The notes beneath the pieces are model-generated. The model was given only the letters and a program-made list of their open reading frames with translations. It had not been told where the DNA came from and did not search any database. Shown here piece by piece: positions 2,129-33,120 of a DNA stretch of 33,120 bases. The first letter of the stretch is position 1. The number at the start of each line of letters is the position of its first letter. Made by a program: the position numbers and the translations under genes. Source of the stretch: Chiloscyllium plagiosum (Eukaryota); contig NC_057718.1 of the NCBI RefSeq assembly GCF_004010195.1, positions 55,047,086 through 55,080,205 on the forward strand, given 5' to 3'.

Positions 2129-2872
2129 ATTAGAGTGGTGCTGGAAAAGCACAGCAGTTCAGGCAGCATCCGAGGAGCAATAAAATCAACGTTTCGGGCA
2201 AAAGCTCTCCATCAGGAATACAGACAGAATGCCTGAAGGGTGGAGAGATAAATGAGAGGAGGGTGGGTGTGGGGAGAAAGTAGCATAGAGTACAATAGGT
2301 GAGTGGGGGAGAGGATGAAGGTGATAGGTCAGGGGGAAGGGTGGAGTGGATAGGTGGGAAGGAAGATAGGCAGGTAGGACAGGTCATGAGGACGGTGCTG
2401 GGCTGGAAGGTTGGAACTGGGGTAAGGTGGGGGCAGGGAAAATGAGGAAACTGGTGAAGTCCACATTGATGCCATGGGGTTGGAGGATTCCGAGGCGGAA
2501 GATGAGGCATTCTTCCTCAGGTATCGGGTGGTAAGGGAGTGCTGATGGAGGAGGCCCAGAATCTGCATGTCCTCAGCAGAGTGGGAGGGGAAGTTGAAGT
2601 GTTCAGTCAGGGGGCAGTGGGGTTGGTTGGTGTGGGTGTCCAGGAGATGTTCTCGCGTGGACCTGACCAGGTAGTCACGGAGAAGGCAGAAAGGGATGGG
2701 GAGGGAAATATACCAGGTAGTCACGGAGGTGGCGGAAATGTCGACGGATGATTTGGTTTATGCGAAGGTTGGCAGGGTGGAAGGTGAGCACCCTTCCTTG
2801 TTACGGTTGGAGGGGTGGGGTCTGAGGGTAGAGGTTCATGATGTGGACGAGATGCGTTGGAGGGCATCTTTT
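2129..2872 (-). mobile_element. Penelope-like element 3' fragment, internally deleted, with 19-bp TSD
   Basis: Minus-strand peptide REHLLDTHTNQPHCPLTEHFNFPSHSAEDMQILGLLH matches the C-terminal part of PLE GIY-YIG endonucleases. Homologous to 30745-31330. Flanked by acctaaaccctagatctag (2110-2128) and acctaagccctagatctag (2873-2891). Confidence 0.88.
2186..2217 (-). ncRNA. Degenerate minimal hammerhead ribozyme motif (family 1)
   Basis: Minus strand reads tc-CTGATGG-agagc-tttt-gccc-GAAA-CGTT-ga. Core A9 is mutated to G and stem II has a mismatch. Confidence 0.6.
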
Positions 2873-2956: not shown

Positions 2957-4022
2957 AGAGACAAAAAAATCTGCAGATGCTAGAATCCAAAGTAGACAAA
3001 CAGGAGGCTGGAAGAACGTAGTAAACCAGGCAGCATCAGGATTTGGAGAAGTCAACCTTTTTTGGGTATAACCCTTCTTCAGGACTAGGTGTGCAGGTAA
3101 GGGGAGCTACAGTTAAAGAGAGAGAGATGGTCATGGGATGGGGAAAGTAGCAGAATGGTGGGGTAGTGATGAACACAGGTAATGGGTATGATCGGGTTGG
3201 TCGATGGGAGGGATGAATCTGGTTGGTAGCTGGAAGGAAGGGTCGGTAGGTGGAATGGAAGGGAGGTAGTGGGGCTGGAAAGGGAGCCCGGGATGAGTGG
3301 GAAGGTTACTTGAAATTCAAGAATTCAGTGTTAAGTCCTTTGGGCTGTAAGCTGCCCAGGCGGAAGATGAGGTGTTGTTCCTCCAATTTACAGTCTTATT
3401 CACTGCGGCAATGGAGGAGGCCGAGAATGGACATGTGGGAGGGGGAATTGAAATGGGTGGTAACCAGGAGGTCAGGCTGGGTGTTTCAGGCCCGGTGAAG
3501 ATGCACAGTGAAATGATCATGTAGTCTACATTGGGTCTCACCAATGTAGAGAAGACCACATTAGAGCACTGGATGCAGTAGACTGGGTTGGAGGAGATAT
3601 AGGGTGAACCTCTGTCTCACCTGGAAGACTGTACAGGACCCTGGATAGAGGTGAGGGAGGTAGTTATGGGCAGGTATTGCATCTTGTTTGCTTACAGGGG
3701 AAGGTACCATTAGGCTGCAGAGGTTGGTGAGGTGTGTGGAACAAACTAGGGAGTGGTGAAGAGAACAGTCCTTGCAGAAGTCAGAGGAGGGTGGGGAGGG
3801 GAAGATGTTCTTGGTGGTGGGGTCTAATTGGAGTTGGTCGAAGTGTTTGAGAACATTACGTTGGATGTGGAGGCTGGTGGAGAGTGGAAAGTGAGGACAA
3901 GGGGGATCCTATCTTTATTATATTTGAAATGGGGATGGGATTTAGAGGAGTGGAGTGGAGAATAGAGTAGGTACAGTGGAGAGCTGGATGACAGAAGGAG
4001 GATAAAGACGTTGTTTGAAATA
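2957..4022 (-). mobile_element. Older Penelope-like element 3' fragment (different subfamily)
   Basis: Collinear with 2129-2872 (ggcggaagatgaggtgttgttcctcc, ggaggaggccgagaatggacatgt) and has a similar terminus (ctgcagatgct…aggcagcatc). Many stops. Confidence 0.8.
3051..3084 (-). ncRNA. Inactivated hammerhead-like motif
   Basis: Minus strand reads CTGAAGA-agggt-tat-accc-AAAAAA-ggttgac. The GAAA box is lost, but the motif sits at the same position as in the other PLE termini. Confidence 0.45.
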
Positions 4023-4957
4023 GATTGTAAGTTTCAAAACAAATCTCTCTGCCACCTATCCAAAAGTAGATTGTTATTTATTTTTTCCCCCTCTTTTAAG
4101 CAGTTTGGATATACTTCCCTTACTCCTGCTGCTTATGAGTTCTGATTTTGCAAGGACTACAGGAACACTGCAGTAAAGTTAAGCCACACACGCTTAGATG
4201 GAGGGGAAATCTCCCGACACAAGCACAATATAAACATACAATGAAATGTAAAAATCAGAACAGATAAAGAGAGTAAACAATTAGTAACAATTTAAATACT
4301 GTAAAACTGAGGGGTACCAAGTTATCAATGTTTTTACTTTTAGGATGCAGTCCACAGGTCCAAAGTTGTAATTCCTTTAAAGTGGTGAATTGATTGGTTA
4401 GCTAGCACTTGAGGAGTACAGAATCTTCTCTTTAACATTTCTTCAAAAGACTTTATAACAAGTTTTGTTGAAATATGACTTCCATTTTACTGTTTTGGCA
4501 AAGGGAGGTTTTTACTTCCAGGTTGCACAAATACAGATTAGTGGCTAATTTTTACAGGCCAGAGGCTTTTTATTCCCTTTACAGCCTGAAGCTAAGGATG
4601 TTGACTTTTTCAGTAAATGTTTTATGGAACAGCACTAACTGCTAAATTGCCTGCTATTTCAAAATTCTAGTTAAAAGGCTGTTGGGTTTAATACTGTGGA
4701 AGTCATATGAGCAAATACCTGGGGAAGGATTAGCAGATAACCAACTGTCTATGACCCATTCTAGTGGTTGTGGAAAGACATTAACACATTTTGTTGTAGG
4801 ATAACTGTAACCTGCCAATTCTGTTATGTGAGGTGCTTTTCCATAGGACATTACAACACATTTATTAGCATTCCAGACCTATCAGGCAGTACACAATGTT
4901 GATTGTCTGGCTGACATTGACTTTGGAGAAGCTTCTAGAAGGTTGCTTTTCAAATTG

Positions 4958-5420
4958 ATTCATTCGTCGGGCTTGGGCATTGCTAGCTGGCCTGCATTTA
5001 TTGCCCATCCCTAGTTGCAATTGGAAAGATGATGGTGAGCTGTCTTCTTGAACTGATGCAGTCCCTGTGCTGTGGGTTGGATGCCATTATGGAAGGAATG
5101 CCATTATGGAAGGAATTCCAAGATTTTGACCCAGTGACAGTGAAGGAATGACAATATATTTCCAAGTCAGGATGGTGAATGGCTTGCAGGGGGATTTGTA
5201 GATGGTAGTGTTCCCAGGTATTTACTGCCCTTGTCCTACTAGGTGGAAGCGTTTGTAGATTTGGAAGGTGCTGTCCACCTTGTAGATAGTACACAATGCT
5301 ATTACTGAATCTTAGAGGTGGAGACTGATGGATGCTTATAGGTAAAATGGTAATCAAACTGGTTACTTTATCGTGGATTGCATCAAGCTTCTTGAGTGTT
5401 ATTGGAGGCAAGTGGAGAAT
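4958..5420 (-). mobile_element. 3' end of a CR1/L2-group LINE (family B)
   Basis: Peptide TLKKLDAIHDK…HHPDLEIYCHSFTVTGSKSWNSF plus tail ctagggatgggcaataaatgc. Homologous to 10580-11258. Confidence 0.8.
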
Positions 5421-5518: not shown

Positions 5519-5550
5519 TCCTGAAGAAGGGCTTATGCCCGAAATGTCGA
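5519..5550 (+). ncRNA. Minimal hammerhead ribozyme motif (family 1)
   Basis: tc-CTGAAGA-a-gggc-ttat-gccc-GAAA-TGTC-ga. The CUGANGA and GAAA boxes, a 4-bp stem II and the GUC cleavage triplet are intact. Stem III AACGT has become AATGT, consistent with CpG decay. Confidence 0.7.
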
Positions 5551-5643
5551 TTCTCCTGTTCCCTGGTTGCTGCCTGACCTGCTGCGCTTTTCCAGCAACA
5601 CATTTTCAGCTCTGATCTCCAGCATCTGCAGACCTCACTTTCT
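5520..5643 (+). mobile_element. 124-bp Penelope-derived mini-insertion (hammerhead + terminus) with 19-bp TSD
   Basis: Matches the PLE termini at 2130-2217 and 30755-30838. Flanked by acacatagagtgtagcctt (5501-5519) and acacatagagtatagcctt (5644-5662). Confidence 0.85.
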
Positions 5644-7049: not shown

Positions 7050-7608
7050 GGGATTTTCTTATAAGGACAAGCTGGGGGCTGATTCTGTTGAAATTTAGAG
7101 GATTGAGATGAGACTTTATTGATGCAATTAAGATTCTTGTGGAGCTTTGATGTGGAGGTGCTGGTGTTGGGACTGGGGTGGACAAAGTTAAAAGTCACAC
7201 AACACCAGGTAACAGTACAACAGGTTTATTTGGCAGTACTAGTTTTCAGAGCACTGCTCCTTTCATCAGGTAATTTGGGGAGCTTGACATGGTAGTTTTG
7301 GAGAATTTGTTTACTCTTGTGGGTGAGTCTAGCACCAAACAGCGCAATCTTAGAATGAGGGGTTACCCATCTAAGCTAGAGATGACGGGAGTGAAACTGT
7401 GAAATTCTTTACTGCAGAGGGATGTCAAAGCTGTTTGTTAAGTATATTCAAGGCTAAGATAGATAGATTTCTAATCAATAACGGAATCAAGATATGGAGT
7501 TAAGACAGGAAAGTGAAGTTGAAGACTATTAGATAAGCCATGATCTCAAAGAATGCCAGAGTAGACTTAACAGGTTGAATGACCTACTTCTGCTCCTCCA
7601 TCTTATGG
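7050..7608 (+). mobile_element. CR1 LINE 3' fragment, interrupted at 7148-7272
   Basis: Collinear with other CR1 ends in the window (tttagaggattgagatgagac…agataagccatgatctc…gaatgacctacttctgctcc). Confidence 0.8.
7148..7272 (-). mobile_element. ~125-bp hammerhead-containing mini-element (family 2) nested in CR1
   Basis: Reverse complement of 27324-27446. Contains tac-CTGATGA-aa-ggagc-agt-gctct-GAAA-acta-gta at 7237-7272. Possible TSD ttgtggagctt (7137-7147) / ttggggagctt (7275-7285). Confidence 0.8.
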
Positions 7609-10098
7609 AATAGTGGAACTGATCACAGCACTGTGGTCCAGAGTGCATTTCTAGTTAAATGGAGGCACAGTTAGGGGAGTGGATACATTTTGCTGCAGCA
7701 GAGACAGAGGGTCACAAAGGCTGCATTGTCTACCTGGTATTCCGATTTAAGAGATCTCTTCTGAACCTAGACTAGGAAGGTAACGATCCAGTTGTTGTGC
7801 TCCTTTAGGTACCAACAACATAGATAGGACTAGGGAGGCAGTTCTACTGAGAGACCATGAGTTACTTGAGATTAAGTTAAAAAGCAGAAGTAGAAAGGTA
7901 AAAATCTCTGCATTACTACCTCAACTACATGCAAATTGACACAGGGTAAATAAGATTAGAGAGGTTAATGCATGGCTGAAATCTCAGCATGGGAGAAATG
8001 GGTTTTGATTCACAAACAACGAGCATTAGTGTTGGGGAAAGAGAGAACTGTTCCATTAGGATGAATTTCAATAGAATAATGTTGGTCCCAGTATCTTGGC
8101 AAATTATACAATTAGGTTTGTAGATAGTGCTTTAAACTAATTAGGTAGTGGAACTATTTGTCTAAATATTCCAGAACTCACGAGATTCCCAAAGGGTTCT
8201 AGCCAATTGGAAATCTCCCTGTTCAAGAAGGGAGAGGGCTGGAATACTAGGCCAGTTAGCCAGTCATCTGTTGATGGGAAAATGCTAGTATGGGTAGAGT
8301 TCAATTGAAGGAAAGTTTAAAAACATCAAAACAAAACAAGAGAGCAGAGGTGAAGATGTGAATGGGAATCCAAGTATGACGGGAAGGGATAGAAAATATA
8401 TGCTGCAGCAGAAATTAGTACCCAAGAAAGTAAAAATGGTAAAAAGACAAAGCATAAATCTCTTTATCTGAATGTACACAATTTTTGAGATGGGTGAGTT
8501 GATGTCACAAATAGAAGTAACAAATGAATTGCTGGCTATTTTGGAGATGTCAGAAGGTGATCAATACTGAACATTAAAGGTATTCAGTATTCTGTAAGAA
8601 TAGGCATAAAGGAAAAGGAGGTATGGTAGGTTTGCATAAAGGATTGCATCAATGTATTGAAGAGTAGCAAAGTAAATGCAATAGATCATGAGGTAGAGTG
8701 AGTTTGGGTGGAATCAGAATAGCAAGGGAAATTGGTAGTGCGTGGGAGTTGTCCATAGGCCTCCAAAGCATTGCCTCTCAGCCGGACAAAGTATAAATAA
8801 CTTAAAAATAATAGAGGTGTGTAAGGAGGACTGTACAATTTTCATAGGTGATTTTAATCTGCATATTCACTGGATAAGTCAAATGGGCCAGAATAACATG
8901 GAAGACGAATATCTACAGTGCATCAGGGATTGTTTCTTAGAGCAGTATGTTACATATAAAATAGTATATACAGCAGTATACTGACCCGGTAACAGGCTAT
9001 TTTAGATGTTGTAATGCATAATAAGTTCGGAATCATGAAATCTCATAGTTAAGGATCATGTAGGTGTTAGCCATTACAACATGATAGAGTTTCATATTCT
9101 GTGTGAGGGAGAGGAACTTGGGTCTCAAACTAGTGTCCTCAGCTTAAATAAGGGCAATTATAAGGTATGAAGAAACAGTTGGCTAAATGGGCTGAGGAAG
9201 TAGACTAAGGGAAAGTTAGTTAATGATCACCAGCAGATGTTGAATCAGCGTAAAAGTTTATCTCTGTCAAAAAGGACTATATGAGAAGAATGAACCAACC
9301 ACCCGTGATCAACAAAGGCAATCAAGGTGAGTATCCAGTCAAAAACCTAAGAGATTCCAAGTGGCAAAAACTAGTGGTAGGTCAGAGGTTTGGACATTTT
9401 TAGGAACTAACAGCAGATAACTAAAAGGCTAACAAAGAGGGAGAAAATTGAATTTGAAGAAAAAAAACAGATAATGGGAGGAAAGCTCTTGTAACAATCC
9501 ATCACAAGGGACAAAATATTTGACAAACTAATGGAACTAAAGGCAGACAGATGTCCAGGACCTCATGACCCGCACCGAAAGGTTTTAAGGAAGTGGATGA
9601 AGAGATGGTGGAACTATTTGTCTAAATACTCCAGAACTCACGAGATTCCCGAAGGGTTCTAGCCAATTGGAAATCTGCTGATGTATCCCCTGTTCAAGAA
9701 GGGAGAGGGACTGGAAGCAGTAAACGATAGGCTAGTTAGCCAGTCATCTGTTGATGGGAAAGTGCTAGTCAATTATGAGGGAAGAAATAGAAGGAAATTT
9801 AGAAATGCTTAACACTGTCAAACAGAGTCAATATGGTTTTATGAAAGGAAAATCATGTTTATCAAATTAGCTTGAGTTGTTTGAGAATATAAAAAACATA
9901 ACTGGTAAAGGGTAACTGATAAATGTTGTATATTAGGATTTTCAGAAGGCATTTGATAATGTGTGATATAGAAGGTTGCTGCACAAGATAGGAGCTCACT
10001 GTACTGGGGGTGACATATTAACATGGCTTGAGAATTTGTTAACACACAGTAGACAAACATTTGGGATTATTGGGTCATTTTCAAGTTGTAAAGATATA

Positions 10099-10579: not shown

Positions 10580-11258
10580 ATCCCCCACTATCAACATCCT
10601 GCGGGATACCATTAACCAGAAACTCAACTAGACTTGCCACATAAACACAGTGGCTACAAGAACAGGTCAGAGATTATGAATACTGAGGCAAGTAACTCAC
10701 CTCCTGACTCCCCAAAGTTTGTCCATCATCTACAAGGTACAAGTCAGGAGTGTGATGGAATATACCCACTTGCCTGGATGGATGCAGCTCCAACAGCACT
10801 CAAGAAGCTGGACACCTTCCGGGACAAAGCAGCCTTCTTAATTAGTACTATATCCACAAGTATGCACTGCCTCCATCACTAAAGCTCAGTAGCAGCAGTG
10901 CATATTAGCTACAAGATACACGGCAGAAATTCACAAAGGTCCTTAGACAGCACCATCAAAGCCATAACCACTTCTATCTGGAAGGGCAAACACAGCAGAT
11001 ACATGGGAACACAGCCACCTTCAAGTTTCCATCCAAGTCGTTCACCATCCTGTCTTGAAAATATATTGCCATTCCTTCACTGTCGCTGGGTCAAAATCCT
11101 GGAATTCCCAAAATCCTGTAATTGTAGGTCAACCCACAATAGGTGGATCACGATGATCAAGAAGGCAGCTCACCATCACCTTCTCAATGACAGCTAGGGA
11201 TGGGCAACAAATGCTGGCCAGCTAATAACACCCCCATCCCACAAATGAATTAAGAAAA
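10580..11258 (+). mobile_element. Family B LINE 3' fragment nested in CR1
   Basis: Peptide PLAWMDAAPTALKKLDTFRDKAAFLI…LHH and tail ctagggatgggcaacaaatgctggcc…A-rich end. The host CR1 resumes on both sides (tatttaaatgga | agattccaaac). Confidence 0.85.
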
Positions 11259-12764: not shown

Positions 12765-14715
12765 ATATTCATTCATGGGATGTTAATATCTCTAAGACAA
12801 CACTTATTACCCACCCCTAATTACCCTCAAGAAGAAGATGGTGAGTTGCTGCCTTGAACTGTTCCAAGATTATGACCCAGCAGCACTGAAGGAATGGTGA
12901 TATTGTTTCAAGTCAGAATGGTTTGTGACTTGAAGGGAACTTGCAGGTGATAGTATTCCACCGCATCTGTTGTTCTTGACTTACTCGCTGGTACACATTG
13001 CTACCATTGCTTTGGTGGTGGAGTGAATATGGAAGATGGTCAGTAAGATACCAATCAAGCCGGCTGCTTTATTTTGGGTGGTGTTAAGCTTCTTGAGTGT
13101 ATTTGGTGTGGATCTATTACTGTCTGACCTGTTCTTGTAGCCATAACATTTATGTGGCCTGTCTAGTTCAGCTTCTGTTTAATCCACAGGGCTCAGTGTT
13201 GGGGCCGCAGCTGTTCACGTTACATATTAATGATCTGGATGAAGGGACTGGGGGCATTCTAACGAAGTTTGCCGATGATACGAAGATAGGTGGACAGGCA
13301 GGTAGTACTGAGGAAGTGGGGAGGCTGCAGAAGGATCTAGACAAATTAGGAGAGTGGTCCAGGAAATGGCTGATGAAGTTCAATGTGAGCAATTGCGAGG
13401 TCTTGCACTTTGGAAAAAAGAATACAAGCATGGACTACTTTCTAAACGGTGAGAAAATTCATAAAGCCAAAGTACAAAGGGATCTGGGAGTGCTAGTTGA
13501 GGATTCTCTAAAGGTAAACATGCAGGTTGAATCCGTGATTAAGAAAGCAAATGCAATGTTGTCATTTATCTCAAGAGGATTGGAATATAAAAGCAGGGAT
13601 GTGCTACTGAGACTTTATAAGGCTCTGGTTAGGCCCCATTTGGAGTACTGTGTCCAGTTTTGGGCCCCACACCTCAGGAGGGACATACTGGCACTGGAGC
13701 GTGTCCAGCGGAGATTCACACGGATGATACCTGAAATGGTAGGTCCAACATATGAGGAACGGCTGAGGATCCTGGGATTGTACTCATTGGCGTTTAGAAG
13801 GTTAAGGGGAGATCTGATAGAAACTTACAAGATAATACATGGCTTGGGAATGGGTGGACGCTAAGAAATTGTTTCCGTTAGGTGGGGAGACTAGGACCCG
13901 TGGGCACAGCCTTAAAATTAGAGGGGGTCAATTCAGAACAGAAATGCGGAGACATTTCTTCAGAGTCTCCGCATTAGGAGAGTGGTGGGCCTGTGGAATT
14001 CATTGCCGCGGAGTGCAGTGGAGGCCGGGACGCTAAATGTCTTCAAGGCAGAGATTGATAAATTCTTGATGTCACAAGGAATTAAGGGCTACGGGGAGAA
14101 TGTGGATAAGTGGAGTTCAAATGCCCATCAGCCATGATTAAATGGCGGAGTGGACTCGATGGGCCGAATGGCCTTACTTCCACTCCTATGTCTTATGGTC
14201 TTATGGTCTAATGCAGCCAGGATGTTGATAGGAGGAAACAGCATTGACTGTCAAGAGGACATGGTTAGATTCTCTCTTGTTTGAGATGGTCATTGTCTGG
14301 CACTTCTGTGGTACGAATGCTAATTGTCACTTGTCAGCCTGAACTGAATGTTCTATGCATCTTGCTGCATGATAAACTCAAGCTTCAGTATCTGAGGAGT
14401 CGTGAATAGTGCTGAACATTGTGCAATCATCAGTGAACATCCCAGTTCTGACCTTATGATGGAGGGAAAGTCATTGATGAAGCAGTTGAAGAAGATTAGG
14501 CCTAGCACAGTCCTCAAAGGAATTCTGGCAGAGATGTCCTGGAGCAGAGATGATTGACATCCAACAACCTTCTTTTGTGTTATGTATGACTCCAACCAGC
14601 AGACAGATTTCCTACTGATTCCTGTTGACTCCAGTTTTCCTTGGGCTCCTTGATGTCATACTTGTTCAGATACTACTTTGTTACCAAGGATAGTGAGTTT
14701 CATCTTACCTCACGT
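12765..14715 (-). mobile_element. Family B LINE fragment split by a younger CR1 (pieces 12765-13183 and 14209-14715)
   Basis: Tail matches 4958-5060. The RT motif TVLGLIFFNCFINDFPSIIRSE is in the minus ORF 14353-14595. The two pieces join across the insertion. Confidence 0.8.
13184..14208 (+). mobile_element. Young 5'-truncated CR1 LINE
   Basis: About 220 open codons PQGSVLGP…KFADDTK…RPHLEYCVQFW…LRGDLIETYK, one frameshift near 13850, and a terminal (ttatggtc)2 octamer repeat typical of CR1. Confidence 0.95.
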
Positions 14716-20740: not shown

Positions 20741-21143
20741 TCTCATACCTATTTTCAAATCCCTCATTGGTCTCCTCCGTTCCCAAATTGGAATACTTTT
20801 CCAACTCTACTCCTTTTTTGATTAGATCTTTGGGCATCCCCACCATGTGTTCTTCATTTGATTTTCACAAAGGCACTGGATGATTATTTAAGTAGTAACA
20901 ATTTGCTGGGCTAAGGAGTTAAGGGAGGAGATTAGCACCAGGTTAAAATGCTCAGAGACCGGGGATCTAAGATGGCGGCGATCTGAGAAGATCACACTGC
21001 AGAGCTTCGCATCGCAGCAGGAGCAGGACGGTCCTTTAACCCACCCAACCCAGGTCATCAGGATTTCTTGGGGTGTTGGAAAGATTGTGGAGCCCCAAGA
21101 ACCATTTAAAAATTGACTTACCTGTATTTTCAGCTGTCCAGAA

Positions 21144-21959
21144 ATGCCTAAAAAGAGAGGAGGAGCAACTGAGGCCGGGTCTGCAGCTCAGCCTGCAGCA
21201 GCCTCGGAGCCGATTACTCTCCAGGACCTGGTGAACCAGCTCTCGAAATCTCACGAGATTTTGGGGAAACAGATTGACGAGAAGCTGGCTCCAGTCTCTC
21301 TCATGCTGCAGAAGCATGAGCAGCAGCTGGGAGACCTAGAGAAGAGGACGGATGAGGTGGAGTACAGGGTCATAGTGGTGGAAGCTGATGCCAGTTCATT
21401 CAAGGAAGAGATCCAAGCCCTGAAGACGCAGGTTCGTAATTTGCGTGACCAAGTGGATGATCTTGAAAACAGGGGCAGGAGAAAAAACATTCGGATCATC
21501 GGTCTGCCTGAGAGTAAGGAAAGTGAGCAGCCTGCGGAATTTGTTGAAGATTGGCTTCCGAAATTCCTTGACTTGGAGACTGGCATGAGAGGATTGAAGA
21601 TAGAGAGGGCTCACCGGGTCGCAGCACGGTGGTCGGGTCTGGGTCAACGCCCTCGTCCTTTCCTGGTGCGGTTCCATCGTTACCAGGATAAGGAGAGAGT
21701 CATGGAGGTTTCCAGACTCCAGGGGAAGGATCCAAAGGCCCTAATTTACGAGGGGTCTAAGATTATGTTTTTTCAGGAATTTTCAGTGGCGGTGATCCAG
21801 AAACGAAAATTGTCTGATCGTGTCAAGAGAAGATTGAAGGAACTTGGGATTCAGTACTCCCTGAGATATCCGGCAGTGCTTCGGATCACCTTAGATGGAT
21901 CCATGCATCTCTTTGACACATTGGAGAAGGCAAGAGACTTTGTGGACAAACTAACCTAA
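21144..21959 (+). CDS. L1 ORF1p (coiled coil, RRM, CTD), intact 271 aa
   Basis: Heptad region, then DDLENRGRRKNIRIIGLPE, IERAHRV, RPRPFLVRF and YSLRYPAVLRI, all L1 ORF1p hallmarks. Confidence 0.93.
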   Translation: MPKKRGGATEAGSAAQPAAASEPITLQDLVNQLSKSHEILGKQIDEKLAPVSLMLQKHEQQLGDLEKRTDEVEYRVIVVEADASSFKEEIQALKTQVRNLRDQVDDLENRGRRKNIRIIGLPESKESEQPAEFVEDWLPKFLDLETGMRGLKIERAHRVAARWSGLGQRPRPFLVRFHRYQDKERVMEVSRLQGKDPKALIYEGSKIMFFQEFSVAVIQKRKLSDRVKRRLKELGIQYSLRYPAVLRITLDGSMHLFDTLEKARDFVDKLT

Positions 21960-22521
21960 TTTAAACAATTGTAGTATGTATAAATATTGTTGCTTGGGTA
22001 TGCGTTTATCATTCTGTTAAAGAAATGGAGGAAATCCGGTTGGAGCTTTGTTTTTCCCCTTTTTTTTTCCTCTATTGATAATAATTTGGTTCAAACTATG
22101 TCTGGCGGTGGTTAAGGTGTACATTTTAAATTTCTAAGTTAGGACATACCAAAGGATGGGTGGGGTATTTATTCCCCTTTTTTAATGAAAGAATTTTTTT
22201 TATTCATATTGATATTCTATGGGGTGTTTATTCTTTTTAGCTTGTGCTTGCGATGCGGCTCTAGCTGGGAGAAGTGAAGGTGGTTGAGATAGTTAGATGT
22301 CTATTTATGGGCAGTTCGGGATGGGTAGTTGCCCCCTCCGGGCAGGGGGTGAGTTCCCCTACTCAGCGCTATTGGCGCTTTATATGTTGGTTTGTTTTCT
22401 GGTTTTTGTTGTTTTTTATTTTTAATAATTTTGTATGTTTGTTAAATGTAGTGGTTTTAGTTTATGTAATTTTTATATTTGGTGGACCATGCGACACTAA
22501 GGCTCAGCAATTTGTGGTTCG

Positions 22522-22686
22522 NNNNNNNNNNNNNNNNNNNNNNNNNNNNNNNNNNNNNNNNNNNNNNNNNNNNNNNNNNNNNNNNNNNNNNNNNNNNNNN
22601 NNNNNNNNNNNNNNNNNNNNNNNNNNNNNNNNNNNNNNNNNNNNNNNNNNNNNNNNNNNNNNNNNNNNNNNNNNNNNNNNNNNNNN
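22522..22686. other. Assembly gap (165 N)
   Basis: Run of N. Confidence 0.99.
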
Positions 22687-25600
22687 TTTTTCTAAACTGG
22701 TAAGTCTCAAGTCTCGGCAAATCATTATAGGGGGAGATGGACCCCATAGTAGACAGGTTGCCTAAAGGTCCCTTGATACCCTGTGCACAAACTAAACAGT
22801 TATTGGGTCTGTGTGGGGAATTAGGATTGGTGGACGTCTGGAGGTGTCTCCACCCTACAGGTAGGGATTTCATGTTTTTCTCCAATCCGCATAGATGTCA
22901 CACGAGGATTGATTTTTTTTCTGACCCCTGTGGTAACCCTGGATCTGGTGGCATCCTGTACGATTGGTAATATTGCCATCTCTGATCATGCTCCAGGGTA
23001 CCTCATGGTTAAAATTAAGGATGTTACAGTGGATTCAAGGTACTGGCAAATGGACCCCTTTATTCTCATGTACAGCAAGTTTGTGGAGTATTTCTTTAGG
23101 GAATTTCGGGCATTCCTAGACATCAACATAGGCTCGGTTGATAGCTCATCTGTTCTCTGGAAAACTGCCAAAGCTTATGCCAGAGGGTTAGTTATTTCAT
23201 ATTCCACCAGTAGGAAGCGGCAGAAGGGTGAGCAGCAATGTCTCCTTGAAGCACGGTTGAAGCACAGCAGCCGAGAAGGCCTATTTTGACAGACCCTCAT
23301 TAGTCAAACTACAAAGGATTACGGCACTGCGGTCTACACTAAATTCCGTGTTCACGCAGACGGCAAAGAAGGAGCTGGCTTTTGCAAAGCAAAGATTATA
23401 CGAGCATGGTGACAAGCCAGACAAATATTTAGCATACCTTGCCAGAAAGAGAAGTGCCCCACAAACCATTACAGCGATTAGGGAAGGGTCTGGGAACCTA
23501 ACATGTGATTCTAAAAAGATTAATGTGGCGTTCCAGAGATTCTACTCTAAGTTATATCAGTCTGAGAATTGTGAGGAGGGGCAGGTCAAAATGGAATCCT
23601 TTTTTAGAGATCTGAAGCTCCCGGGTGTAACTCTCGAACAACAGTCCCTTCTCAATGCCCCATTATCAGAGCAAGAAGTGCAGGAAGCTGTGAGGCAGCT
23701 TCAGAGCGGAAAGGCGCCCGGTCCTGATGGACCTCCCAGTGATTTCTATAAGGAATTTATAAGTATACTGTCAGGCCCGATGCTGAATATGTTTAATGAT
23801 TCATACAGTCATGTTTGTCTCCCACTATCTCTGAGAGAGGCCAATATTTCACTTATCCTTAAAAAAGGGAAGGATCCAGAAGACAGTGCTTCATACAGGC
23901 CCATCTCGCTCTTAAATGGGCTCTTGCGTTAAGGCTGGAGACTGTGTTACCCTCTATTATTAAAGAGGATCAGACGGGCGTCTTAAAGGGTCGCAGATCC
24001 TCCAATAACGTTAGGAGGCTGCTTAACTCAGGCATGCCAACAGCAGTCAATACAGGGATTGGTGATTTCTTTAGATGCAGAGAAGGCATTTGACTGAGTT
24101 GAGTGGCCGTACCTTTTATATACTTTAGACCGGTTTGGTCTGGACGAAGTTTTCATAAGATGGATAAAGGTTCTCTACAGTGTACCTCTCGCTGCGGTCA
24201 TTACCAACGGGGTACGATCAAGCAATTTTAATATTTCTAGGGGCAGCTGGCAGGGCTGTCCCCTTTCATCATTACTTTTTACGTTGGTGATTGAACCGTT
24301 GGCAGAGGCCATTCGTGGGGATCTCAAAATATCAGCTCCAGAAGTGGGGTCAAAATTACATAAGATCTCGCTGTATGCAGATGATGTTCTAATTTTCTTG
24401 ACAAATCCAGCAGTCTCAGTGCCTTGCCTGATACAATGCATTCACGCGTTTGGCGCTTTTTCAGGGTATAAGATTAATTTTGCTAAATCAGAGGCTATGC
24501 CTCTGGGTGGTCTTACGAAAGAGTTGGCTCTTGAGAGTGACTATAGATTCCCATTTAGGTGGTCACAGGGAGGCTTTGTGTATTTGGGCACATTCATTAC
24601 TCCAATTCTGGTTTGGCTGTTCAAAGCCAATTTTACTCAATTATTTGAAAAAATTAAACAAGATCTCCAAAGATGGGAGGCACTTCCAGTCTCATGGTTG
24701 GGTCGGATAGCGTTTATTAAGATGAATATTCTCCTTCGTTTGCTAAACCCTATACAGATGCTCCCTCTGATTTTCAATAAACAAATACTCAGGAGACTGA
24801 ACAGTTGGTTCAGCTCCTTTATCTGGCACCGTAAACGGCCCCTCATTAAATTAGCCAAACTGCAGTTGCCTCACAGATTGGGGGGAGTAGACCTTCCGGA
24901 CATTAAAAATTAGCAATTAAGCTTGCTTTTGACCTATGTAAGTGATTGGGTTTGTGGGGACCCTCTTTCAATATGGCTAGGTATCGAAGTCTCCCAGGCA
25001 GGGTGCCCCATTACCAGTTTGTGTTTTTGGACAAAGTGAGGACAGTTAGGGAATATTGCCATAACCCAATAGTCATCAATACTGTTAAAGCATGGAGGGC
25101 ACTTCGGCAGAGGGAAGGTAATATTGGCAAAGCATCGTTGTTTACACCTTTACTGGGTATGCTGAGTTTTCAACCAGGTATGATAGATTCAGGATTTAAA
25201 CGTTGGGCATCTAGGGGTATATCTTGCACGGGTGATTTATTTGAGGGAGATGTAATGATGTCCTTCGATCAGTTAGTACGGAAGTACGAGTTACCTAATA
25301 GAGACCTCTTTTGTTTTTTTCAAGTTAGGGATTTTATTAAAAAAAAGACCACACTTTTGACCGACATAAAAAGAGGGGTACTAAGGGCTAAGAGTACACT
25401 CTCTGTCAGTACTCTATATCACCAATTGGGGGGTGCCACCTCAGATGAGTCTGATCGACTCTGCAAGATGTGAAAAAGAGAGCTGGGTGTTGAAGTTTCT
25501 TCAGAAGCATGGGAGAATGCAAGGAAGATATCAATTTGCAATAGGACCCATGCTTTACAGTTGAAGATTCTCCACAGGGTCCACTTAGCCCCAGACCGTT

Positions 25601-26042
25601 TGTCAAAATTTAAGCCAGGGGTATCTTCAGCATTTCCCAAGTGCAAGGTCTGTACGGGTACTCTTACCCATTGTCTTTGGTCTTGTGACAGGCTTCAAAC
25701 ATATTGGAGAGCTGTAGTGGGTGCAATGGAGAGGATTTTAGGTGTAGGTGTGAAGAAGGACCCTATTTTGCTCCTTTTGTGCCTACCCTTGCAATTCCTG
25801 CACACTCGCATAAGGAAAAACTTTTCAATATTCTTGCATTCTGTGCAAGGAAGAATATCTTGTTAGGTTGGATATCAGAAACCTTCCCAGGCCTGTCAGG
25901 TTGGCGGAAGATTGTTATGGAGCATATTCCCCTGGATTTTCTCACAAATATGGTACACCACAAAACTGAGAATTTTTACAAGACATGGCAACCCAACCTG
26001 GACACAGATTTATCTGCCACACTAACAAGGGCTTTTATATAG
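22687..26042 (+). pseudogene. L1 ORF2p (APE endonuclease, RT, Cys-rich end), frameshifted; start hidden in gap
   Basis: IIIGGD, LVDVWR, TRIDF, ISDHAP, GKAPGPDG, SYRPISLLN, QGCPLS, LYADDV, and (F)PKC…HCLWSC, spread over several frames. Confidence 0.93.
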
Positions 26043-26326
26043 CCGTAACAATTGTGTTTCATGAGTCCAATATCCAGGGAGGAGGAACTGTGAATGTATG
26101 AGTGTTTTGTTTGGCTGGGCTGAGTTATTCTATTTATTTGTTTGTTGTTAGGTATTTATTTAGTTAGTTAAATAGTTAGTTTAGTTTTTTTTTAAATTTT
26201 ATATTTCTCTATATATGTTTATACATTCGTATAGGAGGGTGGGTTGGGGAATTGTTTTTTATTATTTGCGTTTAGTTTTGTACTATTTTTGTACTGTTTT
26301 GAATTGCATAGTTTTGTATTTGTTGT

Positions 26327-26418
26327 AATATTTAAAAATCTATTTTTTCTTAATAAAAATATATTATAAAAAAATATTTAAAAATCTATTTTTTCTTAAT
26401 AAAAATATATTATAAAAA
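26327..26418 (+). repeat. Perfect 46-bp tandem duplication of the L1 3' end
   Basis: aatatttaaaaatctattttttcttaataaaaatatattataaaaa occurs twice, each copy with AATAAA. Confidence 0.92.
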
Positions 26419-27004
26419 AATGCTCAGAGACCAAGTACAGACATGATGGATCAAATGGTTCCCTTCTGTGGTTCAATGATTCTACACAAATGTAAATTAT
26501 TTGCTGTCATTTTAAGAATCAGTTTACATTTCAGAAATGACGTGATATTATTCTAAGGATTAGCCACAGAGCTAGCAACTACTGGCTATCCAGTATGAAC
26601 TGAATGTGTAATTCTGGACTGAAAGTATCATAGAAACTATAGGCTTACGCCAGTGTTAGGTGTGTAACTGGAATTATCCACTCTAGTTTTATTTTCTTGC
26701 CCTTTTCACATATCCTCTTCTCGGACATGGCTTCCAGCTGGTGAATAGTAACACCATTTACTTGAATTAATTCTCCAACATTTTTTCTAATGCAGTATTT
26801 GTAAGTGTTTGTATTTGTAAAACATCCCTTGCCTAATTAAGATAGTTCTTTGGAAAGCTGAACAATTGCATTGCTTATGGGCTGACTCCCCATTACAATG
26901 ATCAACCATAAATTGCACACACTACAAAAGTAATCGGTACCTGTAATGTTAATTTTTAATTTTCAAAAAATTTCTAAAGATTTGCATGACCTCTAAAAAC
27001 TGCA

Positions 27005-27447
27005 TGAATCCATGTAAGATTCTGTAAATCCATTTTTTAGATTAGAATCAGTCTGACCATTGTGGCACAGAATTTCTCACAGGGTAGCTCACACCTTAAA
27101 TGCACTATCTGGGCTGACATGACACCAATTGTTAAAGTTCACTTAAGAATGTAACTTTTAAATGTTCTGCGATTTACATATGAAAGAACTGAAACCAACA
27201 TGCTCATTCTAAAAGATGAGAGGCTTAACAAACAATCCAGCTCTTTTTCAATATATAATTTCAGTTACATCACGCTAAACTTTTGCTATAAATTCTGTGT
27301 CTTACAATCTTATACTCCACAACCACCTGATGAAGGAGCAGTGCTCTGAAAGCTAGTGCTTCCAAATAAACCTGTTGGACTATAAGCTGGTGTTGTGTGA
27401 TTTTTAACTTTGTCCACCCCAGTCCAACACCGGCATCTCCAAATCAT
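27005..27447 (+). mobile_element. Non-coding Penelope-type element end carrying a hammerhead (family 2)
   Basis: The last ~123 bp match 7148-7272. Flanked by an imperfect direct repeat ctctaaaaactgca (26991-27004) / ctctaaaaaatgta (27448-27461). Confidence 0.72.
27324..27358 (+). ncRNA. Minimal type I hammerhead ribozyme motif, best-preserved copy
   Basis: CAC-CTGATGA-a-GGAGC-agt-GCTCT-GAAA-GCTA-GTG: stem I CAC/GTG, 5-bp stem II with one G-U pair, palindromic AGCT stem III, predicted cleavage after CUA (27355). Confidence 0.78.
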
Positions 27448-27814
27448 CTCTAAAAAATGTACTGATTATTTACAGATGTCTTGACTGGCAGGATTTTAGA
27501 ATAAATTTCAATAAATTCACATAATTTTAAGACTAGGACAGCAATGGCAGAAAGTTCATACTCCATGGACAAGGCTGTAATTATATCTAAGAACAGAACT
27601 GTCAATTGATTTCACCATGCAATGTAATCTAGGCAGATAGTCAGTCATGGTAGTAACTGTACTGAAATAAACAAAAGGAAATCTCAGGGAAATTCTGGAA
27701 CAAGCAAAATGACAAGCACCAAAAAAAAATCTGATAAGATCGCTGTTGAAGTCTTTTAAAATATGCAAACTTTGTTTCCTTTAAGTGGCCTTGTTAAAAT
27801 ATAGAAATATTCTC

Positions 27815-28285: not shown

Positions 28286-29105
28286 GGGCAGAATCTTACA
28301 GATTTTTGGCTGTCCAAGTGAACACTATGTTGTGTGGAATGATTCCTGCCATGAAAACAAGCAAGCTTTCTCACCATAACTTACCAAACATCGCACATTA
28401 ATTGTTGTTTGAGCCTTTGCAGCAAGAATCATGTCTAATCTTTGCCCCCATCTTAGTACACATTGTTCCCAGAACATCTCATCAGTCATTGAATATCCTA
28501 AAATTCACTGCGCCCATGCCATCTTTAAAAAGCCATTATGTTATCAGATGAGCACTGTCGGTCAGAGTCACCCTGTACAGTTCCTGACATTTGCCCAGAC
28601 AGGAGAGAATATGGAAAATTGAGTCCTGGAGGTCCTACTAGATGGGATGGTGCATAGGTGGCATGTCCTCTTCCCCAAGATGAGCGATGGAGGCCATGAC
28701 AAAGATTGACACCCGGGTTAAAACATTCTCAGCTATTTGGATACCTGACACTCATTTAATTATTGCTACTGTATCTACCTTCCACCAAGGGTTATGCTCT
28801 ACCAACTCTCATCATTGCCGACAACATTCTGCCAACTTGCCCTTATCTATCATCAACCCTGCAATACTCTATGCTGCCTACTCATTTATTCAGGAAACCT
28901 CCCACCTGCTGTGTTACCACTTTTGGTTTTATGTAATATCTGTGCCTCTGTCTCTCATTTCATAAGGAAAACAGCCCACAATAGGGCAGAAATACACCAG
29001 TGGGTGGTGTGCTATCCATCATTCATCTCCTTAGCTCTTATAAGAAAAGGATCCTGATTTGGACTACACCGCACAGACCCTGGATTGCGAGGTTGTCCTT
29101 GATTT
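28286..29105 (+). mobile_element. Probable decayed PIF/Harbinger element with a two-exon Myb/SANT-like gene remnant
   Basis: Possible terminus gggcagaatcttac (28286). Peptide VLEVLLDGMVHRWHVLFP (~28622-28677) and downstream KTAHNRAE…IIHLLSSYKKRIL (~28968-29056) resemble Harbinger Myb-like proteins. The right end is not defined. Confidence 0.5.
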
Positions 29106-30744: not shown

Positions 30745-31755
30745 GGATCAAGGGTATGGTGCTGGAAAAGCACAGCAGGTCAGGCAGCATCTGAGGAGCA
30801 GGAGAATCGACATTTCGGGAGTAAGCCCTTCATCAGGAATAGGACTTGTGGGCCAGGGGCTGAGAGATAAATGGGAGGGAGGTGGTGCTGGAGGGAAGGT
30901 AGCTGGGAATGTGATAGGTAGATGAAAGTGCGGATGGAAGTGATAGGTCAGATGGGTGGGAAGAAAGGAAGATGTACAGGTTGGATTGGTCAAGGGGGTG
31001 GTGCCGAGTTGGAGGCTTGGGACTGGGATAAGGTTGGGGGAAGGTAAATGAGGAAACTGGGGAAATCCACGTTGATCCCATGTGGTTGCAGGCTCCCAAG
31101 GCGGAAGATGAATCATTCTTCCCCCAGACTTCAGGTAGTATGGGTTTGGTGATGGAGGAGGCCCAGGACTTGCATGCCCTTGGTGAAGGAGGGGGAGTTA
31201 AAGTGTTCAGCCAAGGGGCAGTGGGGTTGGTTGGTGCAGGTGTCCCAGACATGTTCTCTGAAATGATCTGCAAGTTGGTCTCCTGTTTTCACGATGTAGA
31301 GGAGACCACGTCAGGTGCAACCAATATAGTCATGGTAGCTGAGGAAAAGGTGGGGAATGGTGCTGATGTAGCTGCGGAAGATGGATTGTTCCATGTATCC
31401 GATAAAGAAGCACGCATAGCTGGGGCGCATGTGGATGCCCATGGCTACCTCTTTGGTTTGGAGGATTGGAAGGAGAAGTTGTGGAAGGTGAGGACCAGAT
31501 CAACCAGGTGAATGAGAGTGTCAGTGGAAGGGTACTGGTTGTGTTGGGAAAAGAGGAAGAAACAGAGGGCTTGGAGGCAAGGACTGGATACCTATGGTGA
31601 AGATAAGATGTTAGGGGTCAGGGAAATGAAAGTCTTGGAGGAGGTAAAGGGCGTGGGTGGTATCCTGAACATAGATGGGGAGTTCCAGGACTAAGGGGGA
31701 CAGGATGGTGTCAAGGTATGCAGAGATGAGTTTGGTGGGACAGGAGCAGGCTGAG
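30745..31755 (-). mobile_element. Penelope-like element, internally deleted (RT pieces, GIY-YIG end, hammerhead terminus)
   Basis: Homologous to 2129-2655. 31440-31755 is the reverse complement of the RT region at 32739-33120. Hammerhead motif CTGATGA-aggg-cttact-ccc-GAAA-TGTC at 30807-30838. Confidence 0.88.
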
Positions 31756-33120
31756 GTCTGCATCACACATGACATCACTTCCGCCCCTCACATCATCGCT
31801 GATGTCACATGCTCAGTGACTTCCGCCACCCCTACTGTCGTATCTGCCACCACTTCCGCCCCCACCAACGCCACTCACCTGCATTCTGCTGACACGCCCC
31901 CCACAGATCCCACTGTCACCATTCCCAGCCCCCAGAACCCTGAGGGGAACACTACCCCTGCTCATGACTCCACCCCCATTCACCCCACCATCACACCCAC
32001 TCCAGTTACTGGCTCCGCCCCCACTCCCAGCTCCACACCCACACCAGATCCCAGCTCCCAGCCCTGCCGAGTTTTCACCATCCCTCCAGACCTTCTCCTC
32101 ACTGAGGACGAACGATCAGTCCTCAGCAAAGAACTCACCTTCATCCCCGTCCGTCCACGCATCAATGAATTTAATACACGCCGTGACGTCGAACACTTCT
32201 TCCACCACCTCCGCCTCCGAGCTTACTTTCATAATCAAGGCTCCCACCCACCTTCCGAGGACCCCTTCGCCCACCTCCAACACACTGCATCCACCTGGAC
32301 ACCCCATGCTGGCCTATTACCTGCCCTCGACCTCTTCATTTCCAACTGCCGTCGGGACATTAACCGCCTCAACCTGCCTACCCCCCTCCCCCACTCCAAC
32401 CTCTCACCCTCACAACACGCAGCCCTCCAATCCCTCTGCTCCAATCCCAACCTCACCCTCAAGCCAGCAGATAAAGGGGGCGCAGTGGTAGTCTGGTGCA
32501 CTGACCTCTACACCGCTGAAGCCAAACGCCAACTCGAGGACACCTCTTCCTACCGCCCCCTTAACCATGACCCCACCCCATCACCAAACCATCATCTCCC
32601 AGACCATACAGAATCTCATCACGTCAGGAGATCTCCCACTCACAGCTTCCAACCTCATAGTCCAGGAACCCCGCACTGCCCGGTTCTACCTCCTTCCCAA
32701 GATCCACAAGCCTGACCACCCTGGCCGACCCATTGTTTCAGCATGCTCCAGCCCCACTGAACTCATCTCTACCTACCTCGACACTGTCCTATCCCCCCTA
32801 GTCCAGGAACTCCCCACATATGTTCGAGACACCACCCACGCCCTCCACCTCCTCTAAGACTTCCGTTTCCCCGGCCCCCAACGCCTCATCTTCACCATGG
32901 ATATCCAATCCCTCTACACCTCTATCCGCCATGACCAGGGCCTCCAAGCCATCCGTTTTTTCCTCTTCCAACGTCCCCAACAGTACCCTTCCACCGACAC
33001 TCTCATTCGTTTGGCTGAACTGGTCCTCACCCTTAACAACTTCTCCTTCGAATCCTCCCACTTCCTCCAGACCAAAGGGTAGCCATGGGCACATGTATGG
33101 GCCCCAGCTATGCCTGTCTC
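31756..33120 (+). mobile_element. Penelope-like element ORF (N-terminal region and RT), lightly disrupted, runs off the window
   Basis: [63 protein letters not shown]…QTKG-AMG. Frameshift at ~32575, stop at 32855-32857, further frameshift near 33080. Confidence 0.93.

Follow-up and report, generated by a model that had tools for sequence, protein, structure and literature searches.

Minimal hammerhead motifs of Penelope-like element ends, and a used poly(A) signal in one element family, at a locus of Chiloscyllium plagiosum

Contents of the locus

The window, by which the whole analysed stretch of 33,120 nucleotides of Chiloscyllium plagiosum DNA is meant, is repeat-rich vertebrate DNA with a Pfam reverse transcriptase (RT) match (RVT_1) at 13097 and no tRNA gene. 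Some of the other RT fragments in the window are of a type that we take to be CR1-like. An L1-like element (20955-26420) is nearly full-length, with an open ORF1 (21117-21959) and a broken ORF2; it includes an assembly gap of Ns at approximately 22522-22686 and a 46-bp perfect tandem duplication (26327-26421) in its A-rich end. Three copies of a dispersed repeat family (4955-5407, 10600-11253 and 12800-13183) are 69-84% alike, and two of them interrupt CR1-like fragments. Within a CR1-like fragment there is also a local duplication (8143-8289 and 9603-9769, approximately 1.46 kb apart, 95% identical over 74 nt). A weak Rfam match to Mu-gpT-DE at 28571-28613 (28 bits, gathering threshold 49, E 0.013) is probably due to chance.

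Six hammerhead motifs in two families had been placed in the window by a first-pass annotation, and over the whole window the coordinates and strands of all six proved correct. They are designated here by their first coordinates and listed with the insertions of Penelope-like elements (PLEs) that carry them in Table 1.

Table 1. Hammerhead-bearing insertions and associated features of the window (TSD, target-site duplication)
Feature	Coordinates	Strand	Evidence or remarks
Truncated family-1 PLE, no tail	2129..2872	-	19-bp TSD; endonuclease remnant 2536-2667; core-broken hammerhead 2186-2217
Truncated PLE of a diverged family-1 subfamily	2960..4031 (left end approximate)	-	Remnants; core-broken hammerhead 3051-3084
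Solo family-1 end, 124-126 bp, with hammerhead 5519-5550	5520..5643	+	19-bp TSD, 1 mismatch; starts at stem I
Solo family-2 end, 127 bp, in a CR1-like fragment, with hammerhead 7237-7272	7148..7274	-	11-bp TSD, 1 mismatch
5'-truncated non-coding family-2 insertion, ~450 bp	27000..27447	+	TSDs; depth steps at ~26989 and 27447; no PLE coding match
Family-2 minimal type I hammerhead, best copy	27324..27358	+	Sequence; published minimal hammerhead consensus (PMC4209133, Fig. S3)
Poly(A) signal AAUAAA, 10 nt past the cut; common variant AUUAAA	27365..27370	+	Sequence
Poly(A) addition site of family-2 RNAs (family level, not copy 27324)	27382..27385	+	A-tailed reads
GU/U-rich stretch, candidate downstream cleavage element	27388..27405	+	Sequence
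Optional PLE tail, 36 nt, A+C 72%	27412..27447	+	DNA loose ends, inverted joints
Inverted 5'-truncated family-1 PLE, no tail, with hammerhead 30807-30838	30757..31754	-	RT (31329-31754) and endonuclease (31068-31325) remnants
Frameshifted PLE ORF (N-terminal region and RT), runs off the window	31755..33120	+	Head to head with the inverted copy

State of the six motifs

Although all six motifs had been described as minimal hammerheads, only four (5519, 7237, 27324 and 30807) retain both core boxes, matching CUGANGA, a stem II of at least 3 bp and GAAA; the copies at 2186 and 3051 are core-broken. Copy 2186 has CUGAUGG (A9>G) and an A-C mismatch within stem II, and copy 3051 has lost G12 (G12>A), with AAAA replacing GAAA. 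The core is intact in copies 30807, where only 3 bp are left in stem II, and 5519, whose stem I has 2 bp and whose tetramer, AUGU, is not a perfect palindrome. In copy 7237 an additional A leaves two bases between A9 and 10.1, and the palindrome is destroyed by G15.2>A (GAAAACUA), so that the statement that family 2 uses GAAAGCUA is true for one of the two window copies. The stem III tetramer is AGCU at 27351-27354, ACGU in copy 2186, AUGU in copies 5519 and 30807, and lost from copies 7237 and 3051. The palindromic 15.1-16.1 segment of these minimal copies has no stem III loop, and both families keep a palindromic tetramer there with the middle letters swapped.

The copy at 27324 reads CAC-CUGAUGA-A-GGAGC/AGU/GCUCU-GAA-AGCU-A-GUG, with CAC/GUG as stem I, C3 at 27327, an inserted A at 27334 as the one base between A9 and 10.1, stem II at 27335-39/27343-47, the palindromic AGCU at 27351-54, CUA as NUH, and a predicted cut after A27355. 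This copy had been thought to look intact, and its core boxes are indeed kept, but the conserved 10.1-11.1 pair is G-U, which is its sole departure from the consensus given in Fig. S3 of PMC4209133. The pair is G-U in both family-2 copies of the window, G-C in two marine contigs described below (L001 and L002), and likewise G-U in several of the published representatives (PMC4209133). Most of the depth at 27347 is C (53-66% in four of four shark runs aligned to the window), and the U of copy 27324 may therefore most simply be read as CpG decay.

Folded as monomers, five of the six window copies were no better than shuffled sequences. The low z-score of copy 7237 (-2.85) was rejected as a sign of a hammerhead fold, the structure being a non-hammerhead hairpin. 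The change of stem I from CAC/GTG to TAC/GTA at 7.2 kb, which had been proposed to be compensatory, is a real double change, but it is confined to one copy and not significant: among four sequences, one of eight stem pairs has a double change, and 124 of 500 shuffles reach that. A post-hoc simulation, made after the change had been seen, gave p of about 0.014-0.029, and copy 7237 has two disruptive changes besides the stem I change among its 14 differences. In the four family-1 copies, core columns are 0.90 identical compared to 0.68 downstream, as would be expected from selection on active masters, though single copies carry lethal changes. Of the 40 variant rows listed, five are in the module and none of these falls on a core base. 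Judged by sequence, the six motifs are minimal hammerheads of the PLE type, a known kind, present mostly as decayed copies.

Family 1 as the end of an endonuclease-bearing PLE

A profile built from 13 PLE proteins was searched against the window. Three matches (2536-2667, 3324-4031 and 31068-31754) are on the motif's strand, 230-320 nt upstream of three of the four family-1 motifs, and a fourth (31966-33120) is on the opposite strand, head to head. RT together with a GIY-YIG endonuclease at the C terminus precedes the hammerhead-bearing end in three of four family-1 copies. The closest proteins, some of them Chiloscyllium entries, have RT and GIY-YIG domains, and an RT-domain protein of Chiloscyllium punctatum (P0006) shares 88-96% identity with the frame at 31.9-33.1 kb. 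At 3324-4031, the 3.0 kb copy possesses remnants of the RT thumb, a CX4CxxC linker (CKQTRCNTC, with YIGET) and GIY-YIG. A CX2-5CxxC linker from RT to endonuclease is found in this copy, in L002 and in all 15 relatives that have the GIY-YIG motif, and is missing from the other window copies; because it is kept in the 3.0 kb copy, that sequence points to the Neptune/Nematis clade. Short PLE fragments escaped Pfam, which assigned no family to nine of 12 proteins in one set and, in another set of five, recognised only the RT of L001; the fragments were identified instead by tblastn and the purpose-built profile.

At the junction 31754/31755, the arms of the head-to-head PLE pair are 72-82% complementary, and the inverted copy jumps from RT to endonuclease. 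Such inverted arrangements are typical of PLEs (PMC8557442).

Family 2 and coding PLEs

The first-pass annotation had found family 2 to be without a coding partner, and the profile search of the window confirms this, with no PLE coding sequence next to family-2 ends. The 27 kb insertion has perfect 9-bp TSDs (26991-26999 and 27448-27456), and one contig of shark run X4 bridges its 3' junction at 27447, so the insertion is common to the window genome and the X4 organism. In both families together, TSDs flank four of the five insertions examined. Among the loose ends listed from related shark DNA, positions 27411 and 27441-27447 have the best support as family-2 3' ends, and inverted joints connect 27408-11 with 27447. 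The distances from cut to 3' end are 56 and 92 nt in family 2 and 59 and 95 nt in family 1, the ends being 36 nt apart in both; the optional tail of PLEs is 30-40 bp (PMC8557442, PMC11167929). Taken together, the two families exhibit 5' truncation, TSDs, an optional 30-40 bp tail and inverted junctions. By this end geometry, which is that of family 1, family 2 appears as a PLE end and not an orphan class.

A metagenome scan with the family-2 pattern gave two matches, in the marine contigs L001 and L002, whose motif equals that of the window over 32 of 35 nt, including six matching letters outside the search pattern; there is no further significant match to the window apart from one 28-nt RT stretch (E 0.1). 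Within 1 kb of the motif, L001 encodes a PLE RT (E 1.9e-50), and L002 a CX4CxxC linker and GIY-YIG domain (E 1.8e-36). The two contigs, which share 99.6% identity over 677 nt, represent a single element family from another organism and are pattern-selected and rearranged, and because of the rearrangement the link that they provide between family 2 and a coding PLE is indirect. Pattern scans of collections of viral contigs and genome contigs came up empty, and none of 62 candidates from a search of viral contigs with the PLE profile was confirmed as a relative. A PDB search with the L002 endonuclease gave two matches to Ika proteins over a short stretch. In L002, the non-coding unit and a truncated linker-endonuclease copy are joined by an inverted 109-bp repeat (1-109 and 983-1091); the L002 hammerhead has a stem I that reaches 5 bp, and what follows AATAAA loosely resembles the shark family-2 end.

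The family-2 module is extremely repetitive in related shark DNA, with 119,078 and 90,067 contigs of two runs aligned to 801 bases; the summed depth of such contigs gives no copy number. The genome had been called densely seeded with such ribozymes; what it contains is motif-bearing fragments of PLE ends rather than ribozymes of demonstrated activity.

A poly(A) site downstream of the family-2 ribozyme

An AAUAAA hexamer is located 10-11 nt past the cut in both family-2 copies of the window and 19 nt past it in L001 and L002; no poly(A) signal follows the cut in any of the four family-1 copies. A substitution at 27366 (A>T, 27-51% of depth in four runs) converts the hexamer to AUUAAA, the second most used poly(A) signal. 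Use of the site was evident from run X21, raw single-cell poly(A) RNA of which approximately 2% was read and 5,272 reads were aligned. An A-tail follows 27382 in 746 reads and 27385 in 977, for a total of 1,723 on the ribozyme strand only, and the two positions are probably one poly(A) site in two sequence variants. The site is 12-15 nt past the hexamer and ahead of the GU/U-rich stretch, which is presumably the downstream element expected at poly(A) sites. Across the site, minus-mate depth drops to 19%, with plus-mate depth remaining at 101%; upstream of the cut, minus-mate depth is still 88% of the value downstream, at the signal. Sense family-2 RNAs are therefore polyadenylated at 27382-27385 and mostly uncut. 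No pile of RNA ends was found at 27356 in X21, which counts for little, a cut product of 28 nt being hard to recover.

Only 55 of the 5,272 aligned reads are at least 99% alike to the window, and the species of X21 may not be that of the window, so the evidence of poly(A) use concerns family 2 and not copy 27324 itself. The skew among upstream variants suggests that most of the X21 poly(A) reads come from few loci. Genomic A-runs at a small number of loci may also have served as priming sites, though 27382-27385 is not among the DNA loose ends listed. A 2-nt GT insertion right after 27355, found in 440 of 3,307 RNA reads of X21 but in less than 0.1% of DNA depth (runs X1 and X4), is probably a variant of one highly expressed locus or of the species.

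Visual inspection of Fig. S3 of PMC4209133 shows AAUAAA or AUUAAA in the approximately 15 nt past the cut for 11 of its 56 representatives. No report of hammerhead-poly(A) coupling in PLEs was found in the literature searched, a scope that left aside subscription papers and Repbase entries. A poly(A) signal inside a pseudo-LTR (pLTR) is not unexpected.

Where short copies begin

Of the two TSD-flanked solo inserts, which are 124-127 bp long, 5520-5643 starts at stem I and 7148-7274 starts 2 nt ahead of it. In both DNA runs, the 5' loose ends with the best support among those listed fall at 27324 and 27325, a pile to which different upstream subfamilies contribute. Ribozyme-cut RNA as a template would give copies beginning at 27356. 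The short inserts of both families support uncut RNA as the template, because they start at the 5' edge of the ribozyme and not at the cut. This is in line with an element of the anole in which the main template is uncut RNA, cleavage by the ribozyme requires protein, and the tail is set by internal start sites of reverse transcription (PMC11167929).

In runs X1 and X4, the consensus of one subfamily upstream of 27325 has CACTAGCT at its end, exactly complementary to 27351-27358, a segment that comprises the palindrome, the cut site and the 3' strand of stem I. Agreement on this ending is only 0.43, yet it is identical in both runs (448 and 351 contigs). Such an ending could lock the ribozyme off.

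Origin and activity of the motifs

With high confidence, all six motifs are attributed to the minimal type I hammerheads in the pLTRs of endonuclease-bearing PLEs, remnants of 5'-truncated insertions from at least two families and most likely inert, to which the pLTR of family 2 adds a used poly(A) signal. In an active element, the motif would not close stem III by itself, and weak cutting after NUH17 would occur upon pairing of two copies via the 4-nt palindrome (ACGU or AGCU) or with an element protein aiding the fold; dimer- or protein-aided cleavage has been published for other PLEs (PMC6765202, PMC11167929). Starting about 56-59 or 92-95 nt past the cut, reverse transcription would copy uncut RNA, which would be why the shortest inserts keep the whole ribozyme. 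The geometry of the inserts is observed, and the mechanism is modelled on that of the anole element. After insertion, copies would decay without a partner, largely at CpGs. The family-2 mRNA would end at the poly(A) site of the pLTR, and read-through RNA would serve as the template, because element ends lie 26-64 nt past that site. As seen for the family as a whole in one run, the poly(A) signal ends and polyadenylates RNAs that cross the module in the sense direction.

The copies in the window are probably inert as ribozymes, because each of them lacks an intact copy with which to cleave as a dimer: the two of family 2, separated by 20 kb, lie on opposite strands, and the sole close pair on the same strand (2186 and 3051) is doubly broken. 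In a nearest-neighbour model that ignores the non-canonical contacts of the core, the active dimer was not the preferred structure, at -11.1 kcal/mol versus -26.0 kcal/mol for the best alternative.

Alternative explanations

It is unlikely that family 2, instead of being the truncated end of a coding PLE, is mainly a non-autonomous SINE-like or retrozyme-like element of approximately 125 bp that has a short transcript of its own and is moved in trans by a PLE protein. The module (27324-27447) is approximately ten times deeper than the sequence upstream in DNA runs, the top 5' loose ends and both solo inserts begin at the ribozyme edge, and animal retrozymes have been proposed to be pLTR-derived (bioRxiv 10.64898/2026.07.22.740005). 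However, several upstream subfamilies with one common end would likewise give loose ends at 27324; family 1, which is clearly a PLE, yields an equally short solo insert; and the 27 kb copy has 325 bp of further repeated sequence upstream, with no fall in depth towards its left end. The window has no tandem arrays of the module, hence no array with a hammerhead in at least two consecutive units as in a retrozyme. Still less can be said for the motifs being chance matches in repeat-rich DNA, a reading with almost no probability left to it. In 200 dinucleotide shuffles of the window, a lax rule that found four real motifs had a shuffle mean of 0.685 and a maximum of 4, reached in at least one shuffle, and the covariance-model check that had been proposed gave no support: the Rfam scan of the window returned three unrelated weak matches and no hammerhead family at E up to 5. 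A strict rule (stem II of at least 4 bp, one inserted base, at most 30 nt) found two motifs versus a shuffle mean of 0.03 and a maximum of 1. A chance origin is contradicted by the fixed place of the motifs in PLE ends, by the family-2 35-mer in unrelated marine contigs, and by the palindromic tetramer shared with swapped middle letters.

Two readings that assign a regulatory role to family 2 are both improbable. Some sense copies might be regulated 3' ends that supply a poly(A) site, with a paired or protein-aided ribozyme whose cut, 28-30 nt upstream, takes off both signal and tail, as in Clec2. The strand-specific A-tailed reads, the variation of the signal between AAUAAA and AUUAAA, the suggestion of few loci as the main source, the similar geometry of Clec2 (PMC6765202) and the anole hammerhead that cuts only with protein (PMC11167929) agree with this. 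Against it, the polyadenylated RNAs are mostly uncut, with no 5' ends piled at 27356 (weak evidence); the reads come from one run, perhaps of another species, are rarely close to the window, and could include priming on genomic A-runs; and family 1 has no such signal. More broadly, and with as little likelihood, the family-2 pLTR might be a mobile ribozyme and poly(A)-site cassette in very many shark copies, giving 3' ends to host and element RNAs, with the hammerhead as a de-tailing switch that fires upon RNA pairing or with a PLE protein, and to which one subfamily may add an 8-nt antisense lock. If this were true, the role of PLE hammerheads would be to control RNA 3' ends and sense transposons, and not to make the transposition template.

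Comparison with known hammerheads

Minimal hammerheads in the pLTRs of metazoan PLEs were described by Cervera and de la Pena in 2014 (PMC4209133). The motifs of the window resemble those in being type I, with CUGANGA plus one inserted base, a G10.1 stem II, GAAA, a palindromic 15.2-16.2 segment, NUH, a short stem I and no stem III loop, and in being mostly single motifs of truncated PLEs with several families per genome. Neither the 56 motifs of Fig. S3 nor Table S1 of that study include a cartilaginous fish, and the 3' flank is described there just as AU-rich, with no mention of a used poly(A) site such as that of family 2. The Poseidon element PAc of Anolis carolinensis (Frangieh et al. 2024, PMC11167929) likewise has its hammerhead in the pLTR, two 3' ends that produce an AC-rich tail, uncut RNA as its main template, and no RNA-seq ends at the cut site. 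In contrast to Poseidon, the 3.0 kb copy, L002 and the closest full-length proteins have the CX2-5CxxC linker that marks Neptune/Nematis. The AUG in the family-2 core opens a frame of only eight codons.

Like the animal non-LTR retrozymes of Li et al. (2026, bioRxiv 10.64898/2026.07.22.740005), family 2 is non-coding and pLTR-related, with a type I hammerhead; whereas retrozymes form tandem arrays, the copies of the window are dispersed monomers with TSDs and PLE tails. The supplements of that study cover one chondrichthyan genome and may list these families. In the hammerhead of mammalian Clec2 3' untranslated regions (PMC6765202), as in family 2, the cut is upstream of the poly(A) signal and so would remove it. 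The Clec2 ribozyme is discontinuous, located in a gene, and cleaves and lowers expression, whereas the family-2 motif is minimal and transposon-borne, and its cleavage is predicted.

Significance

As a ribozyme, the hammerhead described here is ordinary, PLE minimal hammerheads having been known since 2014; it is the starts of the inserts and the poly(A) site that bear on what PLE hammerheads are for. The family-2 poly(A) site is 28-30 nt past the cut, where cutting would remove the tail, and 26-64 nt ahead of the 3' ends of the element. Because those ends lie beyond it, an RNA that ended at 27382-27385 cannot template a complete insertion. The use of this site suggests that family-2 repeats donate poly(A) sites to shark transcripts.
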